A stretch of DNA of 64,000 nt from an uncultured Phycisphaerales bacterium (GTDB lineage: Bacteria > Planctomycetota > Phycisphaerae > Tepidisphaerales > Tepidisphaeraceae), in assembly GCA_963755915.1 (NCBI GenBank), contig CAVWLP010000002.1, positions 2,496,001 to 2,560,000 of the forward strand, written 5' to 3'. A program made the position numbers and the translations under genes. Positions 5,509-54,248 of this stretch are shown here, in pieces (within the stretch, counting starts at the first letter, position 1; the number at the start of each line of letters is the position of its first letter). The notes beneath the pieces are model-generated. The model was not told the origin of the DNA and made no database searches. It saw nothing but the letters and a program-made list of their open reading frames with translations.

Positions 5509-5580
5509 TCTTCCTGGCGCCCTTGGCGTCTTGGCGGTTATAAAGATTTTTAACCGCCAAGACGCCAAGAGCGCCAAGAA
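5509..5580. repeat. REP-like palindrome family C (AACCGCCAAGACGCCAAG inverted pair)
   Basis: CTTGGCGTCTTGGCGGTTA...TAACCGCCAAGACGCCAAG; related copies at 27671/29167 and 52840-52868. Confidence 0.85.
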
Positions 5581-23016: not shown

Positions 23017-23611
23017 GAGCATTTTGGAGCCGGGCATTTTAGAAGCGGGACGGGAGCGGGTTTGTCGGATTGGCTGTTGAACCAGGGCACGTGGCTTGAA
23101 AGAATGTCGAAGACCCCCACCCCGGCCCTCCCCCGGAGTACCTGACGGCCCGACACTTTTCTAACGCGCTGGCCAAGGGGCGCTCGTCTAAAGACGAAAT
23201 GCAAATGCAATGCGGGAGGGGCGAGGGGGAACCGATATAGGGCCCCAAAAGTTTCCCCCTCGCCCCTCCCGCACCCTCCCCACTCCCCTTCCTTTTCCCC
23301 TCAACGCTCCCCCTAAAATGCGTGCACGACAGCATCCATGCAATCGCGTGCCCCAACGCCATCGCGGACCAGGTGCGCGAACCATTAGCGAAACGCCTCC
23401 GCATTTTGTCTTTCGGCTTGGACGGTTAGGGGAAGCCGGAAAGTGGTGGTGGGGGTGCGGGGGAGGCGGCGAAAACCGCTTGGGGCCTTATGGGTGTCAT
23501 GGGGCGCGCAAAACCGGCCAATTGAGGGCGCACCAAAACCGGCCATTTTGAGGCACAGGAGATTGGGTTATCGACCTTGGCTTTCGGCGGTTGCCGCAAG
23601 CCAATGGTGGG

Positions 23612-25411
23612 ATGGCCAATCAACTCAAGATGGCGGAAGTACAAGCAATTTTGGCACTTGCGCAGCGGCTGGTCCAATCGGAACATCGCCCGCCAACTCG
23701 GCGTTCACCGGGAGACCGTTGGACGCCACATCCGGTTGTCGGGCGGCGATCCTGCGGCGCCCGGATCGGATTCAAAACCGGCCAGCGCCCCTCGGCTCGA
23801 CGGTGCTCGCCGCAGGCGGCTCGACGGTGCTCGCCGCAGGCGGCTCGACGGTGCTCGCCGCAGGCGGCTCGACGGTGCTCGCCGCAGGCGGCTCGACGGT
23901 GCTCGCCGCAGGCGGCTCGACGGTGCTCGCCGCAGGCGGCTCGACGGTGCTCGCCGCAGGCGGCTCGACGGTGCTCGCCGCAGGCGGCTCGGAGAGCGCG
24001 CCCACCGGGTTATCCGGCGCGCCCATCGGGTCGGTCAGTACGGCATCGCCCTGGCGTGAGGTCATTGTTCAGAAGTTGGAAGCCGGGCTGACGGCCCAGC
24101 GGATTTATCAAGACATCTCCAGCGATCACGGCTATGCCGGCAGCTATTACAGCGTGCGCCGGTTCATCAAGAAGCTCTCGGCTGCCGCGCCGGCGCCCTT
24201 TCGCCGGATGGAATGCGAGCCGGGAGCCGAGGCGCAGGTGGACTTCGGCCGGGGTGCGCCCTGGTCGGTCCTGACGGCAAACGCAAAGCAACCTGGGTCT
24301 TCCGCATTGTGCTGAGCCACAGCCGCAAGGGGTACGCCGAGGCGGTGGAGCGGCAGACGACCGATGATTTTCTGCGTTGTCTGGAAAATGCCTTTACGCA
24401 CTTCGGCGGGATGCCGTCAGCGCTGGTGATCGACAATCTTCGCGCGGCGGTGACGCGGGCGGACTGGTTCGAGGCGGAGTTGTGTCCCAAGGTCCGGTCG
24501 TTCGCCGAACATTATGGAATCGCCATTCTGCCCACCAAGCCGTACACGCCGCGGCACAAGGGGAAGATCGAGCGGGGCATCGGCTATGTGAAGAGCAATG
24601 CTCTCAAAGGCCGGCAATTCGCCTCGCTCTCGGATCAGAACGCGCATCTGCTGACGTGGGAGAAGAGCGTGGCCGACACGCGCATCCACGGCACGACGCG
24701 GCGGCAGGTGAAGGAAGTCTTCGAGCAGGTAGAGAAGCCGGCACTGTTGGCTCTGCCGCCGGTGCGATTCGATCTTTTCACCGAGGCGTTGCGCAGTGTT
24801 CACCGCGACGGGCACGTGGAGATCAAGGGGGCGTACTATTCGGTCCCGCCGGAGTTTTTGGGCCAGCGGGTCTGGGCGCGGTGGGACGGCGCACGGTCCG
24901 GCTGTTCGATCAGAAGATGCGTGCGATCGCTCTGCACGCGCAGCGTCCGCCGGGCAGGTTCTCGACGCAAGACGCCCATATCCTGCCGGAGAAGATCAGC
25001 GGCATCGAGCGTGGAACGACCTGGCTTCTCCAGCGGATCGAATGCATCGGGCCGCACGCCACGCAGTGGGCGCAGTCAATGCTTCAGCATCGCGGCATCG
25101 AAGGCGTGCGCGTGTTGATGGGGCTGCTGTCGCTGGCCAATCAGCAGCCGCGACCGGCCGTGGAACGAGCCTGCGAGATTGCTCTGGGGCATGGCGCGTA
25201 TCACCTGCGCTCCCTGCGGCAGCTCATCGAACACCAAAACGGCGCGCCGGTTCAACAACACTTCGAGTTTGTTCAGGAACATCCAATCATCCGCGGACTG
25301 GCCGATTACGGACAGTTCGTACGCGACGCAATCACCCAAGCGGAGGCTTTGCCTGCCGCACAACCTTTACAGGCCTGCCCTGAGCAGAGCCGAAGGGAGT
25401 CCACCCCATGA
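23612..25411 (+). CDS. istA: IS21 transposase IstA, frameshifted
   Basis: HTH WSNRNIARQLGVHRETV; EAQVDFG, VIDNLRAAV, KGKIERGIGYVK and RIHGTT motifs. Confidence 0.92.
23793..23991 (+). repeat. Tandem repeat, 8 x 24 bp (CGGCTCGACGGTGCTCGCCGCAGG)
   Basis: Eight identical units with no spacers; encodes (GSTVLAAG)8. Confidence 0.97.
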
Positions 25412-26298
25412 GACCTTCGTTGATGCAGACGCTCAAGCAACTTCGGCTTTCAGGTCTGGCGAGCAGCCTTGAAGTTCGCCTGAGCGAGGCGGCCGGCAAT
25501 CGGCTCGACCACAGTGAGTTTTTGGAACTGATCCTTCAGGATGAACTGAACGTCCGATCCAGCCGGCAGATCGGCCGGCGCGTCAAGGCGGCGATGTTCC
25601 GCGACACCAAAAACCTCGACGAGTTCGACTTCTCCTTCAACACCTCCATCAAACGCAAACAGATTCACGATCTGGCCGCCGGCCAGTTCATTCGTGACAA
25701 ACGTGACGTGCTCTTGCTGGGTCCGCCCGGCGTGGGCAAATCGTTTTTGGCCCAGGCCATCGGACACCAGGCGATCAAGAGCGGCTTGGTGGTCCTGTAC
25801 CGATCCATCTTCGACCTGGCCCGCGACTTTTTAGGCGACGAGGATCTGGGAGCCCAGGACAAGACGCTGGCCCGGTATCTCAAGCCTGATCTGCTTATCA
25901 TCGACGACATGGGAATGAAGCAGCTTCCGCGGCGCAGCGGCGAATGCCTGCTGGAGATCGTCATGCGCCGGCACGAGAACCGCTCGACGATGATGACCAG
26001 CAACCGTCCACTGGAGGACTGGGCCAAGCTGATCGGCGACGTGCCGGCGGCCACGGCCATTCTGGATCGGTTCCTGCAGCACGCCACGATCATCAACATC
26101 ACCGGCAAGAGCTACCGCCTTCGGCATGGGGGCCATTCGACTTCGCTCACGGCAGGCCAATCCGGGACACCGGAAAAGACAAATCCAAAAGGACGGCGGA
26201 GTACCGCCGGCGATGAAGGGTGCTCCCCCCCGGAAGACACCGTGACAGAGCCGCCGTTGTCTTCTGATGTGGGGGTATCCGCCGGCCAGACGGCGTGA
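25408..26298 (+). CDS. istB: IS21 helper AAA+ ATPase IstB
   Basis: GPPGVGKS, LLIIDDMG, TSNRP, AILDRF and GKSYRL motifs. Confidence 0.95.
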   Translation: MRPSLMQTLKQLRLSGLASSLEVRLSEAAGNRLDHSEFLELILQDELNVRSSRQIGRRVKAAMFRDTKNLDEFDFSFNTSIKRKQIHDLAAGQFIRDKRDVLLLGPPGVGKSFLAQAIGHQAIKSGLVVLYRSIFDLARDFLGDEDLGAQDKTLARYLKPDLLIIDDMGMKQLPRRSGECLLEIVMRRHENRSTMMTSNRPLEDWAKLIGDVPAATAILDRFLQHATIINITGKSYRLRHGGHSTSLTAGQSGTPEKTNPKGRRSTAGDEGCSPPEDTVTEPPLSSDVGVSAGQTA

Positions 26299-26619
26299 AC
26301 GGGGACCAATAACTCAAGGAACAGTTGCGTCGGATAGAACGGATGCGGTATAGAATACGTCAGCACATTGGCCGGTTTTGAAGCGCCCCGCCCTGGCTGG
26401 TTTTGGGCGCCCCGTGACAATGGGGTTGTCGCCGCCTCCCCTGCATTGCATTTGCATTTGTCTTTAATAGAGCTGGCCACTTGGTCTCCGAACTCGAACA
26501 AAGTGTCGGGCGGTCAGCCCGGAGTACCAGGGGAGGGGGAAAAGGGGGACATGCGATTGGCCTGGCCGTTGAACTCCTCTGAAACTTGAAAGCTGGCGGG
26601 AAACAGTTCTATTTAAGCC

Positions 26620-27672
26620 ATGCCAATTCTGCCGGCCCTTCGGAAACGGCGCCCGCCGAGGTGGAGGGATTATTATACGCTCCTGTTTCTTTTCCTGTGC
26701 GCCGTGCTCCTTGGGCCGTGGTTTACGTTTTATGGGCTTTATGCCGATCACCGGGACCGCCCCAGCCTGCAGTGGCCCAAAGTTTCCGGCATGCTCGTTC
26801 AGGAACGGAAACGGTATAGCGTGGGTCGTACCTCCGACGAGATGGTCAATGTCAGCTACACGTATGCCGTCAATGGTCATCATTATGTGGGCCACCACAT
26901 TCCGGCCTGGAGCACACAATGGGACGCCTACGAAGACGACCGATCCATGGCGTTTGCAAACGCGCATCCGGTCGGCTCGGTGGTGGCAGTCTATTACGAC
27001 CCGGAACAACCGGACAATGCCGCGCTGCTGCCCGGACCGGACGTGGCGGGCAACCGCTTCTTCATGATTGGCGGCTGCGCCATTTTGGTTTGCGGGCTGT
27101 TTCTGGTAACGATGAACTTCAACAAGCTCGCTGCGATGAAGTCAGCGATTCAGGCAAGGGAGGCGAGGCATCGGACGGTCGGCCCGCACAAACACGGCGC
27201 TTTGCGGCACGGTTTTGCCAGCTATGAGCCCGCGTGCAAACGAAAGCTGAATATTTTCCCGGACCAGCAATGCCTGGATGAAGTCCTCGGTCATCGGGGC
27301 AAGCCGCTGCAGGACTGGAAGGCGGAAGACCGGATGATTGATGTCGCGGGGTGTGAATACCGGATTGTCAAAGAGCCCGGCAAAAAAGCCTATGACCTCA
27401 GTCCGACAGGCGAGAAGTGGACGTATGAACAATTGCTCGGCGTTGCCGAGGAGGATGAACGGGCGGCGAAGAAAAAACCCGAGGCGCTGCGTCAATTGCT
27501 GGATGAAGTTGGGGAGAAGGACCGGATGGGGGTGCTGATGAAGGCATTGGACGCGAAATCGGAGATGCCGCAGTGGTTCGAGGCGGCGTTTGTGGCTTTT
27601 CTGGTATTGTTTGCCCTTGGTTGTGCCGCCGTCGGCGTTGCCATTTTTGAATTGGTGACGAAATATTTTTAA
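26620..27672 (+). CDS. DUF3592-like membrane protein
   Basis: TM-WPKVSG..VSYTYAVNG..VAVYYDPEQPDNAAL-TM pattern. Confidence 0.7.
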   Translation: MPILPALRKRRPPRWRDYYTLLFLFLCAVLLGPWFTFYGLYADHRDRPSLQWPKVSGMLVQERKRYSVGRTSDEMVNVSYTYAVNGHHYVGHHIPAWSTQWDAYEDDRSMAFANAHPVGSVVAVYYDPEQPDNAALLPGPDVAGNRFFMIGGCAILVCGLFLVTMNFNKLAAMKSAIQAREARHRTVGPHKHGALRHGFASYEPACKRKLNIFPDQQCLDEVLGHRGKPLQDWKAEDRMIDVAGCEYRIVKEPGKKAYDLSPTGEKWTYEQLLGVAEEDERAAKKKPEALRQLLDEVGEKDRMGVLMKALDAKSEMPQWFEAAFVAFLVLFALGCAAVGVAIFELVTKYF

Positions 27673-27792
27673 CCGCCAAGAAACTATGAAGCCGAGCCTT
27701 TCTCGGGACGTGAACGGGGTCAAAATGCCCCAAGTATGAACGAGCGTACCGCGTAGGTCGCTCAAACGTCTTTTTTGAGAAAGGACTCGGCA

Positions 27793-28836
27793 ATGCGAAT
27801 TCTCGCTTTGGACCTGGGAAAGAACAAGAGCGTTTTTGTGGATTATGTCACCGGCGGTGGAGAAAGAACGTTCGGCAAGATCGGCACCAATGCCCACGAG
27901 GTGCAAAAACTACTCGAGCGGGTGCGTCCGGATCGACTGGTCATCGAGGCCGGTCCGGCGGCAGGATGGGTTTGTGATCTGGCGGAGCGGAACAATGTTC
28001 CCGTCCAGGTGGCCAATGGCAACGATGAACGCTGGCGCTGGAAGACGGTGAAGGAGAAGAGTGATCGTAAAGACGCGCTGAAGATGGCGGCGATGTCGGA
28101 GATGGATTCGCTGCCGACGGTGCACGTGCCCAAGGCATCGGTTCGGCAGTGGCGTTCATTGATTGAATACAGACACGGCCTGGTGGATCGCCGCACGGCG
28201 CTCAAGAACTCGATCCGATCAATCTACGAGCGGCAGGGTTTGTATTTGCCCTCGGCGACCAAGGCGTGGACGAAAGCGCGACTGGAGGAAATGAGGAAGG
28301 AAGCAGCGGCCGCATCGGCGGAAGATCTGTGGCTGTTTCAGATCGGTTGTGAGGTGGCGCAACTGGAGCACCTGGAGAAGCAGATCGAAACTGTCGAAAG
28401 CAAGCTTCAGGAGTTGGGCCAGGCCAACAAAGCGGTGAAACGATTGCAGGAGGTGCCCGGCGTTGGTCCGCGGCTGAGCGAGGCGGTGGCGGTGATCATT
28501 GATGATCCCAGGCGATTCAAGAATGCACGTCAGGTGGGATGTTACGTGGGTCTGACGCCGCGGCGCTGGCAGAGCGGCGACAGCGATCGCCAGGGGCGGA
28601 TCAGCAAGGCAGGCAACGCGCTGCTGCGGGAGTTGCTGGTGGAGGTGGCGTGGCTGGGGGTTCATCGCAATACGTGGATGAAGGACGTGTACGAGAGGGT
28701 TCTACGTGACAGCGAGAAGCGCAAGAAGATCGCGATTGTTGCGGTAGCCAGGAGATTACTGGTGAAGCTGTGGGCGATGCTGCGGGACGGAACCCGATGG
28801 AGAGAACCCCAGCGATCGCTGACGGCGGCCACTTGA
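27793..28836 (+). CDS. IS110 family DEDD recombinase/transposase
   Basis: ALDLGK, IEAG, SDRKDA, VPGVG and GLTPRRWQSG..GRISKAGN motifs. Confidence 0.95.
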   Translation: MRILALDLGKNKSVFVDYVTGGGERTFGKIGTNAHEVQKLLERVRPDRLVIEAGPAAGWVCDLAERNNVPVQVANGNDERWRWKTVKEKSDRKDALKMAAMSEMDSLPTVHVPKASVRQWRSLIEYRHGLVDRRTALKNSIRSIYERQGLYLPSATKAWTKARLEEMRKEAAAASAEDLWLFQIGCEVAQLEHLEKQIETVESKLQELGQANKAVKRLQEVPGVGPRLSEAVAVIIDDPRRFKNARQVGCYVGLTPRRWQSGDSDRQGRISKAGNALLRELLVEVAWLGVHRNTWMKDVYERVLRDSEKRKKIAIVAVARRLLVKLWAMLRDGTRWREPQRSLTAAT

Positions 28837-28869
28837 AAATCGAAAAGGCGATGACTGTCCCGACAAGTC

Positions 28870-29145
28870 GGTACAGGCGATGGAGTATCTCCCCTCCGGA
28901 AGACACCGTGTCAGAAAGCCGTTGTCTTCTGTGCAGGGGATTGAGTAGAGTTGAAGTGAAGTGGAATTGACGCGTTCGTGCAGGTTGAATGAGCAAGGCC
29001 AGACCCCGGTTGGCGTCTTAAGCTTCAAAGCTTGCCGCTAAGAATAGGGCTGGCCATTTGTACAGTTGAATAGGCCCGCCGCCAGGCGAGAGCACTGAAT
29101 AGAAGGCTCACCCAATCGACCGCATGAGCGATCAACGCCCCTTGA
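28870..29145 (+). ncRNA. Putative bridge/seek RNA in the IS1111 3' non-coding end
   Basis: Internal loop 28997-29055 carries guides matching both sides of the insertion target; RNA ends approximate. Confidence 0.75.
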
Positions 29146-29315
29146 CAAGGCTCGGCTCATAGAAGACGCCAAGAGACTTCGATGAGCTCTCTTCGAGCCT
29201 GAGCCTCAGAGCCGAAGGCAGTCGAGCCGCGCCAAGAAATACAAATTGCTTATGGGTGAGGTTCCCCATTCGAATTTTTTCCCCCTGTGGCAGGCAATTT
29301 CAGGCGTCGGACAGA

Positions 29316-30095
29316 TCACCGCGATTCGGCGGGGAGAGTGTTGGTATGATCCAGGGCACCGAAGCGCCGATTGCGGGACGCAAACTCGGCGAGGGTCTTG
29401 TGGAATTCCTCGATATTGAAATCCGGCCAGAGGACGGGGCTCACGACAAGCTCGGCATAGCTGATCTGCCAGAGGAGGTAGTTGCTGACGCGCATTTCGC
29501 CCGCGGTGCGGATGAGCAAATCCGGATCGGGCATGCCGGCGGTGTAGAGATGGTCGCTGATGGTTTGCTCGCGGATGTCGCGCGGATCGATTTTCCGACC
29601 GCGGCTTTGGCGGCGATGGCACGGACGGCATCCGTGATCTCCGCGCGAGCCATAGTTGAGGGCGAGATTGAGTTGAAGGCCGTCATTATTGGCGGTTTCC
29701 GCCAAGGTCTGGTTCACCTGGTCGTTGACGAGATCGGGCAGATTCTCCAGACGGCCGATCTGCTTGAAGCGGATGTTGTTCTCCATCATCGTCGGCTGCT
29801 CCTGGCGGAGATAATCGACGTACATCTGCATGAGATAAGTGACTTCCGAGGCGGGGCGTTTCCAGTTTTCCAGGCTGAAGGAATAAAGCGTGAGGAAATC
29901 GGGAGCCCCATATTCCCGGCGGAGGCGGGAGCATTCGGTGACGAGGCCGCGGACGACCTTTGCCCCCTGTTGATGACCCTCGACGCGAGGCAGCCCGCGG
30001 GCGACGGCCCAGCGGCCGTTGCCGTCCATGATAATGGCAATGTGGCGCGGAATGCGCTGGAAGGGAAGATCGTCGAGCAGGGTCATTTGGGCCAT
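29316..30095 (-). CDS. uppS: Isoprenyl transferase (undecaprenyl diphosphate synthase), frameshifted
   Basis: HIAIIMDGNGRWA, FSLENWKRP, LNYGSR and DLLIRTAGEMRVSNYLLWQ motifs. Confidence 0.95.
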   Translation of the reverse strand: MAQMTLLDDLPFQRIPRHIAIIMDGNGRWAVARGLPRVEGHQQGAKVVRGLVTECSRLRREYGAPDFLTLYSFSLENWKRPASEVTYLMQMYVDYLRQEQPTMMENNIRFKQIGRLENLPDLVNDQVNQTLAETANNDGLQLNLALNYGSRGDHGCRPCHRRQSRGRKIDPRDIREQTISDHLYTAGMPDPDLLIRTAGEMRVSNYLLWQISYAELVVSPVLWPDFNIEEFHKTLAEFASRNRRFGALDHTNTLPAESR

Positions 30096-52826: not shown

Positions 52827-52907
52827 TCGGAAAGAGATTAACCGCGAAGACGCCAAGAGCGCGAAGAAAATGCGGAATTGGCCACAGATTTAAATCAGAT
52901 GCACCAG

Positions 52908-54169
52908 TGACCTTCCCCACGTTTGGTGGGCGCGGCCTGAAGCCGGATAATCCGGCTGAAGGAGCGAATTGCCATGGGACGCAAACATTATTCCAGGGAG
53001 TTTCAGGACGAAGCCTGCAAACTCGTCACCGATCAAGGCTACACACAAAGGAAAGCGGCCCAGGAACTGGGCCTTCCGGTGCACATCGTGCATCACTGGA
53101 TGAAAAAACGTGGACTGATCAAGCCCGCGGCTGAGGAGCCCGCGTTTCCAGACACCAACGATCCGACGCTGCTCAAGGCCCGCATCCGCGAGTTGCAAAA
53201 GCAATTGCGGCGGGTCGAAACCGAGAAGGAGATTTTAAAAAAAGCGACGGCCTACTTCGCCAGCCAGAACCCATGAGATTCGCCTGGATCAAAGAACATT
53301 GGGACCCGTTCGATCTGGCCGCATTGTGCGATGCGCTGGAAGTCAGCCGCAGCGGGTATTACGCCTGGCTGAAACGTCCAGCCAGCCCGCGGCACAAGCG
53401 CCGGGAAGAGCTGACTGAGAAGATCCGCGAGGTTCATGAGGAGAGTCGCTATACCTACGGCAGCCCGCGGGTGCACGCGGAGCTGGCGGATCGGCAGGTG
53501 AGCGTCTGCGTGAACACGGTGGCGCGTCTGATGAAACAGGCCGGATTGCAATCGCGGATTCGCCGGCGATTCGTCGTCCATACCACCGATTCGAATCACG
53601 ATGAGCCGGTCGCGGCCAATGTGCTGGACCGCCAGTTCGCAACTGAGGCGCCCAACCGCAAGTGGTGCTGCGACATCACCTACGTTCCGACGGATGAAGG
53701 ATTCCTATACCTGGCGGCCGTGATCGACCTGTGCAGTCGGAAAATAGTCGGCTGGTCGATGGCCGATCATCTGCGAAGTGAGCTGTGTCTGGAAGCGATA
53801 TCGATGGCGCTGACACATCGCCGACCGGAGCGAGGTTTGCTGCACCACTCCGATCGCGGTGTCCAATACGCCTGCGAGACTTATCGACAGATGCTGGCGG
53901 AGCATGGGATGGAGCGGAGCATGAGCCGCACCGGCAATTGCTACGACAACGCGGTGATGGAGAGCTTTTTCAGCACGCTGAAGACGGAGCTCATTTATCA
54001 CGAGCACTACGCAACGCAAGCGGAGGCTCGGCGTTCGATCTTTGAGTACATTGAAGTGTTTTACAATCGCCAGAGACGTCACTCGGCGATAGGCTACCAA
54101 AGCCCCGAAGCGTTCGAGGCCAGCCTGAACTGACGATTTGGCCGCGCCCACCGAACGTGGGGAAGGTCA
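52908..54169 (+). mobile_element. IS3 family insertion sequence
   Basis: TG..CA TIRs TGACCTTCCCCACGTTTGGTGGGCGCGGCC / GGCCGCGCCCACCGAACGTGGGGAAGGTCA; 3-bp TSD CAG. Confidence 0.95.
52974..54133 (+). CDS. IS3 transposase OrfA (52974-53276) / OrfB (53273-54133) with -1 frameshift site
   Basis: HTH OrfA; AAAAAAAG slippery site at 53237-53244; DITY, HSDRG and DNAVMESFF motifs. Confidence 0.93.
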
Positions 54170-54248
54170 CAGATGAATTGAATTGAAATCTGATTTTTTA
54201 TCTGATTTTGATCTGTGGCGATTTTCTCTTTGCTTGGGGCTTTTTCGG

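Follow-up and report, generated by a model that had tools for sequence, protein, structure and literature searches.

How does an insertion sequence (IS) come to occupy the same position of the same host repeat in every one of its genomic copies? This question is raised by an IS1111-type element at positions 27681-29165 (1485 bp, counting one copy of its core) of a 64,000-nt stretch of the genome of an uncultured Phycisphaerales bacterium, hereafter the window. We put at roughly 90% the probability that this element is an RNA-guided member of the IS1111 group, aimed at a repeat resembling repetitive extragenic palindromic (REP) sequences. This reading is based on complementarity between predicted guides and the target, covariation of guides with target in relatives, a conserved predicted RNA fold, and identical insertion sites.

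Family assignment of the element

We analyzed the ends of the element, its transposase gene, and its non-coding segments, which are laid out as follows.

27681-27700, + strand: left end with subterminal inverted repeat (CTATGA at 27684-27689, AGCCGAGCCTT at 27690-27700), by direct reading
27793-28836, + strand: transposase gene, 347 aa, with a DEDD/RuvC-like N-terminal domain and a PF02371 C-terminal domain
28837-29163, + strand: 3' non-coding end of 327 nt, predicted to give rise to a seekRNA/bridge RNA and the same in all nine genomic copies
29147-29163, + strand: right end with subterminal inverted repeat (AAGGCTCGGCT at 29147-29157, TCATAG at 29157-29162), by direct reading

The transposase matches Pfam families PF01548 (E = 2.9e-10, residues 6-144) and PF02371 (E = 2e-24), and it scores 216.6 bits against the NCBIfam equivalog NF033542, "IS110 family RNA-guided transposase," which has a cut-off of 140. 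Sequence matches in PDB are the transposases of ISCro4 and IS621 (the latter as 8wt6). Four acidic residues, D7, E52, D91, and D94, are unchanged in six relatives, and we take these to be the catalytic four residues of the enzyme. Also unchanged in the six relatives are G253, L254, P256, S261, and G262 of the segment GLTPRRWQSG (residues 253-262), which aligns to GLTPRRYESG of ISCro4. The C-terminal domain motif GL-P----S(t)G is used here as defined in PMC11187229.

The gene is preceded by 112 non-coding nt (27681-27792) and followed by 327 nt (28837-29163). The subterminal repeats consist of an 11-bp perfect pair, AGCCGAGCCTT/AAGGCTCGGCT, and the pair CTATGA/TCATAG, shifted by one base, and lie 3 and 1 nt inside the ends; because of the one-base offset, an automated repeat search with a minimum length of 12 missed them. 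The left end is kept in four relatives described below (G001, G011, L077, and L079). A longer non-coding region downstream of the gene and subterminal inverted repeats set IS1111 apart from the IS110 group (PMC11187229; PMC11208160), and the repeats of the element fall in the 7-17 bp range of the IS1111 group. All family tests that we ran, from both Pfam domains and the NF033542 score to the long 3' non-coding end and the subterminal repeats, place the element in the IS110 family, IS1111 group, as the initial annotation of this DNA had predicted from sequence. Its closest named relatives belong to a Phycisphaerales metagenome-assembled genome.

All copies occupy one position of a REP-like repeat

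The insertion site and its empty counterparts in the window are as follows.

27671-27678, + strand: left target half (AACCGCCA) in the REP-like repeat, the same in 9/9 genomic copies and running on into the right half at empty sites
27679-27680, + strand: left copy of the core AG, which is present at both junctions and common to target and element
29164-29165, + strand: right copy of the core AG, from direct reading, comparison of the nine copies, and the G011 relative
29166-29175, + strand: right target half (ACGCCAAGAG), the same over ACGCCAAGA in 9/9 copies
5523-5568: two empty REP-like units in inverted arrangement, with an intact 15-nt target in each (minus strand, 5523-5537; plus strand, 5554-5568)
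52842-52856, + strand: empty near-copy of the target (CCGCGAAGACGCCAA) with one mismatch, at the guide B wobble position

The left junction reads AACCGCCAAGA/AACTATG (in a longer reading, AACCGCCAAGA/AACTATGAAGCC) and the right junction CTCATAG/AAGACGCCAAGAG (longer, GGCTCATAG/AAGACGCCAAGAG). Joined by direct reading, the flanks give AACCGCCAAGACGCCAAGAG, which bears out the earlier proposal that excision would restore an empty repeat. Empty copies had been reported near 5522-5569 and a near copy at about 52840; we found the 15-mer CCGCCAAGACGCCAA at 5554-5568 (+) and 5523-5537 (-) and located the near copy, with its one mismatch, at 52842-52856.

The window's genome (G000; three contigs, 6.63 Mb, 81% complete by marker genes) holds nine full copies of the element, seven 100% and two 99.93% identical, with intact 347-aa frames. 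All nine sit in AACCGCCA-AG-ACGCCAAGA, in one orientation and in nine different wider contexts on two contigs, so that the check proposed for the other genomic copies came out in favor of the predicted site without exception. A further 22 exact 15-mer targets are left empty in this genome. Comparison with empty sites shows AG/AAGA alone to be present at both junctions, the pattern of site- and orientation-specific insertion without target duplication.

Within the window copy, AAGA is common to target and element, which makes the position of the crossover ambiguous. We placed the core at AG because AG alone is shared by both junctions in the G011 relative, where the empty site is CAGGCC-AG-CCA. 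This predicted empty site occurs 55 times in the G011 genome, compared with 2 for a control, and its wider repeat context is that of the occupied sites. By homology with G011, crossover in the window copy would likewise fall at AG. Recombination of ISPpu9 also takes place at an AG (PMC12288879).

The repeat comprises 39 units within 5 mismatches of a 30-nt consensus, plus the 9 occupied units (about 48 in total). An intact inverted partner lies within 70 nt of 13 of the 22 exact empty sites, and three more partners are split by the element; the repeat is REPIN-like (resembling REP doublets that form hairpins). Among the occupied units, six have an inverted partner and three are solo, and thus the palindrome is not required. 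Two PF01797 genes are present in the window's genome, and neither has the repeat within 1.5 kb (at most 2 mismatches). Since this search found no link to a REP-associated tyrosine transposase (RAYT), we use "REP" as a descriptive label only: the host REP target of the initial annotation holds as a multicopy repeat, often in inverted pairs. A variant of the repeat with an 11-nt insert (gagcgaagcgg, partner strand) is common to the window's genome (left flank at C3:893630; C2:2836105; C3:889012) and G001 (loci L032, L038, and L042).

Predicted guide segments in the 3' non-coding end

The 3' non-coding end contains a predicted stem-loop with two segments related to the target.

28997-29055, + strand: target-binding stem-loop, GGCCAG (28997-29002)/CTGGCC (29050-29055) plus CCC/GGG, around an internal loop with a small hairpin
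29010-29019, + strand: guide T (UUGGCGUCUU; DNA TTGGCGTCTT), complementary at all 10 nt to A+AG+ACGCCAA of the top strand (core and right half)
29020-29033, + strand: small hairpin between the guides (AAGCUU-CAA-AGCUU), in 6/6 aligned relatives, with covarying pairs
29035-29043, + strand: guide B (CCGCUAAGA; DNA CCGCTAAGA), in the sense of CCGCCA+AG+A, with one rU·dG wobble in its pairing to the bottom strand

We checked the coordinates of the stem, guides, and hairpin against the sequence, and each was as first annotated. The two guides form opposite strands of one internal loop and overlap on A-AG-A. In seekRNAs of the IS1111 group, the top-strand match lies 5' of the bottom-strand match (PMC11187229), and guide T lies 5' of guide B here in the same order. 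In the predicted fold of the free RNA, guides T and B pair with each other, a side effect of the target being a tandem repeat.

To estimate chance expectation, we randomized the 327-nt non-coding end 20000 times with a first-order Markov model. Of these random versions, 35 contained a perfect 10-nt complement of the target that includes the core, and 14 contained matches like guide T and guide B together. A count tolerating G-U pairs was dropped as uninformative (7966 of 20000), because the bottom strand is G/T-rich. Guide T is unlikely to be a chance match, while guide B is meaningful only through its position; of the two guides originally proposed, then, the first is retained as an exact 10-mer that is rare by chance, and the second, taken alone, is within chance. 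The weight of the guide reading lies in the 9/9 identical insertion sites and in the covariation of guide and target in relatives.

Relatives at other sites carry other guides

We searched for relatives of the transposase at the protein level in 41 related genomes, which gave relatives in 6, and in 401 genomes of the phylum, which gave 3, both counts including the window's own genome; the phylum-wide search added just 2 distant relatives. A scan of named genome records yielded 6 loci. Four relatives have insertion sites that can be compared with their guides.

G001, transposase 91% identical, 4/4 copies in one site: GACGCCA-AG-AGCGCCAAG, the next unit of the same repeat; guide T UUGGCGCUCU, guide B unchanged
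G011, transposase 73% identical, 12 of 16 matches examined: site CAGGCC-AG-CCA(A/G)C; guide T GUUGGCU, guide B AGGCCAG
L077, transposase 51% identical, one copy: site ..GATAAAA-AG-TTCAATTGG; guide T AAUUGAAC, guide B AAAAAG
L079, transposase 49% identical, one copy: site CCCCGCCA-AG-GGGCTGCCG; guide T AGCCCCU, guide B CCGCCAAG

The four G011 matches left out are truncated elements or lie at contig ends. Another relative, L080 (transposase 42% identical), was set aside as a target-guide case, as we could not assign its ends and core or find its target guides; its donor-guide match alone was used. The L034 relative, on a short contig without ends, entered the structure alignment only.

The smallest step is that between the window's genome and G001. 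Guide T of G001, UUGGCGCUCU, is the exact complement of AG+AGCGCCAA, its own right half; it differs from that of the window by three adjacent base changes, and the site has moved by one 9-bp repeat unit. The left halves of the two sites share CGCCA+AG, which fits the unchanged guide B. In G011, L077, and L079, the guide B at the homologous position matches in each case the left flank and core of the element itself.

When the register is anchored at the core, all five RNAs score best on their own target, with Watson-Crick sums of 14, 14, 14, 6, and 15 against foreign maxima of 8, 7, 7, 4, and 12; the high cross-score of L079 arises because its left half happens to equal that of the window. The window's genome contains 19 copies of the G001-type site and 17 of the G011-type site, none of which holds any of the nine element copies. 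Guide and target thus covary in 5/5 elements with known sites. The RNA-guided targeting put forward in the initial annotation is upheld here, as relatives at other sites carry guides changed to match their own flanks. At the level of sequence comparison, this natural retargeting is the strongest and the decisive support for RNA-guided target choice.

Conserved predicted RNA fold and a blind test of guide T

The 3' non-coding end folds with a z score of -5.44, and none of 100 shuffled versions folds as well. Across six seekRNA regions, RNAalifold predicts 20 consensus pairs, 12 of them with compensatory double changes; the outer stem GGCCAG/CUGGCC, for example, is replaced by GCGGCA/UGCCGC in G011 and by GACGAC/GUCGUC in L077. 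The folding and covariance modeling with homologs that had been suggested as a check therefore yielded a conserved stem. The alignment, a small sample of six related sequences, supports the predicted fold, short of statistical proof. A scan of positions 27000-30000 against Rfam (E ≤ 1) gave no match to a bridge RNA or seekRNA family; its match to snoRNA (small nucleolar RNA) sR28 inside the transposase gene (18.7 versus 39 bits) was read as chance.

In the window's genome, our covariance model of the region (R1) finds the nine copies alone (E = 5.8e-27). It has matches in 8 of 101 genomes, and four hits in other genomes are new: L084 (in G009), L085 (G474), L086 (G006), and L087 (G456). These four are 3' remnants, consisting of a seekRNA region and a right end. 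None was found to have an intact transposase gene upstream; L084 has just 276 nt on that side, and L087 keeps only a 29-aa transposase remnant. The L084 remnant adjoins the C-terminal part of another transposase-like frame.

As the remnants were outside the training set of R1, they provided a blind test of guide T against the right flank. Guide T of the G009 remnant, UCCGCGCCU, matched AG+GCGCGGA at 9/9 nt, and that of the G456 remnant, AUAACCCGC, matched G+CGGGTTAT, also at 9/9 nt. The guide T region is deleted in the G006 remnant; the result for G474 is given with the contrary evidence below.

These data bear on the possibility that the protein alone picks the target, for instance through the palindromic structure of the repeat, with the complementary segments of the 3' end a coincidence or relic. 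The target does lie in a palindromic repeat, with an inverted partner at 6 of the 9 occupied sites; guide B, taken alone, is within chance; and for ISPpu10 a target stem-loop adds specificity (bioRxiv 10.64898/2026.03.19.712850). Yet three of the nine insertions are in solo units without a partner. Five relatives occupy five sites, three of them outside the repeat, each with matching loop sequences, and two independent remnants match as well. In the pair with 91% identical transposases, the difference in site corresponds exactly to the difference in guides. We consider target choice by the protein alone extremely unlikely.

Presumed donor region and possible junction promoter

Beyond the target-binding stem-loop, four features may belong to a donor-binding region or a promoter.

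29064-29067, + strand: AGUU, invariant in 6/6 relatives and able to pair with AACT in the left end; candidate left-end contact
29074-29093, + strand: P2, a second hairpin, flanked by the two strands of a presumed donor-binding region; relatives vary in its sequence and length and keep its pairing
29099-29105, + strand: donor guide AUAGAAG, equal to the right end (ATAGA) plus core (AG) and matching 29159-29165
29142-29147, + strand: TTGACA, an outward-facing -35-like hexamer; candidate half of a junction promoter on circularization

The donor guide covaries with the right end: it is AUAGGAG with CATAGGAG (CATAGG-AG) in L077, AUAGUGG with CATAGTGG (CATAGT-GG) in L087, and AUAGUCG with CATAGTCG in L080. 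The donor segment of G474, AUAGAGG, is wobble-compatible with ATAGAAG. On the left side, AGUU and the left end are both invariant in six relatives, so no covariation signal is possible there. In many IS1111 elements, the nucleotides that bind the donor are located in a multi-loop (Durrant et al., PMC11208160).

A donor segment that follows the element's own end also speaks to the idea that the 3' segments are captured pieces of the repeat that serve not as guides but in antisense or decoy regulation, for instance of host transcripts containing REPs or of the transposase mRNA. Both segments resemble the repeat, and they can pair together in the predicted free RNA. Compared with the repeat, however, the pieces stand in swapped order and on opposite strands, with a conserved hairpin between them and a covarying stem around them. 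The same layout recurs in relatives with targets outside the repeat, and the donor segment both matches and covaries with the end of the element itself. We regard this alternative as hardly credible, the least probable of those considered.

The hexamer TTGACA, TTGACT, or TTGCCA stands 16 nt before the core in G000, G001, G011, L077, L079, L084, L086, and L087. By analogy, TTGACA would fit the junction promoter published for the family (PMC12288879). A consensus scan found no internal promoter in the element. The host flank of this copy only has a sigma-70-like match pointing into the element (TTGCCA-18-AATATT, 27638-27667), which follows a terminator-like hairpin at 27623-27638. Four contigs from two metatranscriptome runs overlap the region; one is 100% identical over 28796-29000, and one, about 95% identical over 28968-29166, is a G001-type relative with its own flank.

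The contigs of four runs contained no circle junction or excision joint, although contigs cannot reveal rare circles. This negative result and the lack of an internal promoter in the consensus scan would suit an element of RNA-guided architecture that is now inert, its copies being fossils spread by duplication or by recombination between repeats. Against this stand nine copies 99.93-100% identical to one another, with intact 347-aa frames, in nine flanking contexts on two contigs: near-identical, intact copies in different contexts are the pattern expected from recent transposition. Fossil copies are thus a very unlikely account, if somewhat less so than the two alternatives above. The best explanation is that the host is a soil planctomycete and that the element is an active or recently active member of the IS1111 group.

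Several observations weigh against RNA guidance as we read it. Taken alone, guide B is not significant: a 9-mer matching the other strand with at most one substitution arose in 5571 of the 20000 random versions. One of the four G001 copies occupies a variant unit in which just 7 of the 10 positions agree with the guide. The guide T match of G011 is short, at 7 nt, and is perfect in 5 of 12 copies, wobble-compatible in another 5, and weaker in 2. In the blind test, guide T of G474 fails to match its flank (one of three testable remnants). A left-end donor guide was sought in 29060-29072 and none was convincing, as the A(C/U)AGUU/AACT(A)T pairing stops short of the core. Finally, the -10 half of the promoter across the circle junction would be weak, and the metatranscriptome contigs, the sole support from RNA libraries, could derive from DNA, which is possible in such libraries.

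Proposed mechanism

From published work on ISEc11, ISPa11, and IS621, we infer the following steps for the element. The DEDD transposase would bind a seekRNA/bridge RNA derived from the 3' non-coding end. One strand of its loop (29010-29019) would pair with the top strand of the REP-like site, at the core AG and right half, and the other (29035-29043) with the bottom strand, at the left half and core. A second region, with AUAGAAG at 29099-29105, may hold the right end and core of the element in the excised circle. Recombination at the shared AG would then insert the element in a single orientation and without target duplication. The RNA may be transcribed together with the transposase mRNA, from a circle-junction promoter using TTGACA at 29142-29147.

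A hairpin module common to IS21-like elements

Between the transposase stop codon and the seekRNA, and outside the conserved seekRNA, lies a further structured segment.

28889-28940, + strand: hairpin module, GGAAGACA..TGTCTTC inside CCCC..GGGG

Stretches of 43-58 nt with 84-93% identity to this 52-nt module occur at 43 other places in the genome, one of them at 26209-26266 of the window. These places are the istB 3' ends of two IS21-like families unrelated to the element (31, 9, and 1 copies) and two solo sites that follow ordinary genes; a U tract comes after one of the solo sites. The non-coding ends of G011, L077, and L079 lack the module, which has no Rfam match. We think it doubtful that it is an exchangeable functional unit passed between IS families rather than a scar of chance recombination. 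If it were such a unit, it could be a processing, termination, or host-factor signal separating the guide RNA from the transposase mRNA.

Other mobile elements lie nearby in the window. An IS21-like element (istA/istB) occupies 23440-26600, directly upstream; its istA frame looks split, and it contains an eight-fold coding tandem repeat, GGSTVLAA. An IS3-family element with 30-bp terminal inverted repeats and orfA/orfB is found at 52909-54170, about 50 bp downstream of the near-copy of the target at 52842-52856.

Comparison with known systems and significance

The literature holds close counterparts. ISPa11, an IS1111 element of Pseudomonas aeruginosa, inserts at a single position of a REP, and its seekRNA co-purifies with the transposase (PMC11187229). 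The present element resembles it in its DEDD transposase (ISPa11 and this element being of about 340 aa), subterminal repeats, long 3' non-coding end, REP site, and order of guides, with T 5' of B. It differs in host phylum, repeat, and guide sequences; the two are compared by description, and the present element is known from sequence alone. Bridge RNAs are predicted in 93% of the IS1111 elements in ISfinder, including ISPa11 (PMC11208160).

A precedent for retargeting is the pair ISEc11/ISXne4, in which the transposases are 72% identical, the seekRNA stem is kept, and the guides are replaced for another target (PMC11187229). The series G000/G001/G011 appears to reflect the same natural re-direction; unlike in that pair, the step from G000 to G001 is minimal, with three adjacent bases changed in one guide and the other guide unchanged.

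Two members of the IS110 group from Pseudomonas putida, ISPpu9 and ISPpu10, insert at AG inside REPs, often in inverted pairs (PMC12288879; PMC11208160), and their guidance by bridge RNA has been inferred or shown (PMC12288879; PMC11208160; bioRxiv 10.64898/2026.03.19.712850). The likeness is insertion at an AG within a REP-like repeat. Their RNA lies upstream of the gene and they are without long subterminal repeats, whereas the element described here is of the IS1111 type with its RNA downstream. In IS621 of Escherichia coli, also of the IS110 group, the strands of the target loop of the bridge RNA pair with opposite DNA strands around a 2-nt core, and the donor region is separate (PMC11208160). 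A target-binding internal loop, a 2-nt core, and the catalytic Ser of a GLxPxxxxSG-type motif are common to both elements, as a separate donor region may be. The present element has the opposite order of guides and an RNA encoded 3' of the gene, and its presumed donor-binding part is only half identified.

RNA location, guide order, and re-direction were published for ISPa11, ISEc11/ISXne4, and ISKpn4 (PMC11187229). The mechanism, RNA location, guide order, REP target, and natural re-direction are all, then, already in the literature, and the element is an example of textbook quality, not a discovery. Among the literature matches listed, no IS1111 element of such kind is described from Planctomycetes, and this is apparently the first described from a planctomycete.

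The value of the element lies in the compact natural series to which it belongs, with five sites and five guide pairs on one scaffold, drawn from one planctomycete genus and more distant relatives. The series includes a step of three adjacent bases that shifts insertion by one 9-bp unit, and a donor guide that covaries with the right end and core. IS1111 is the less-studied branch, and for its guide rules the series offers a ready-made, low-risk test set covering core position, tolerated wobble, and minimal guide length.

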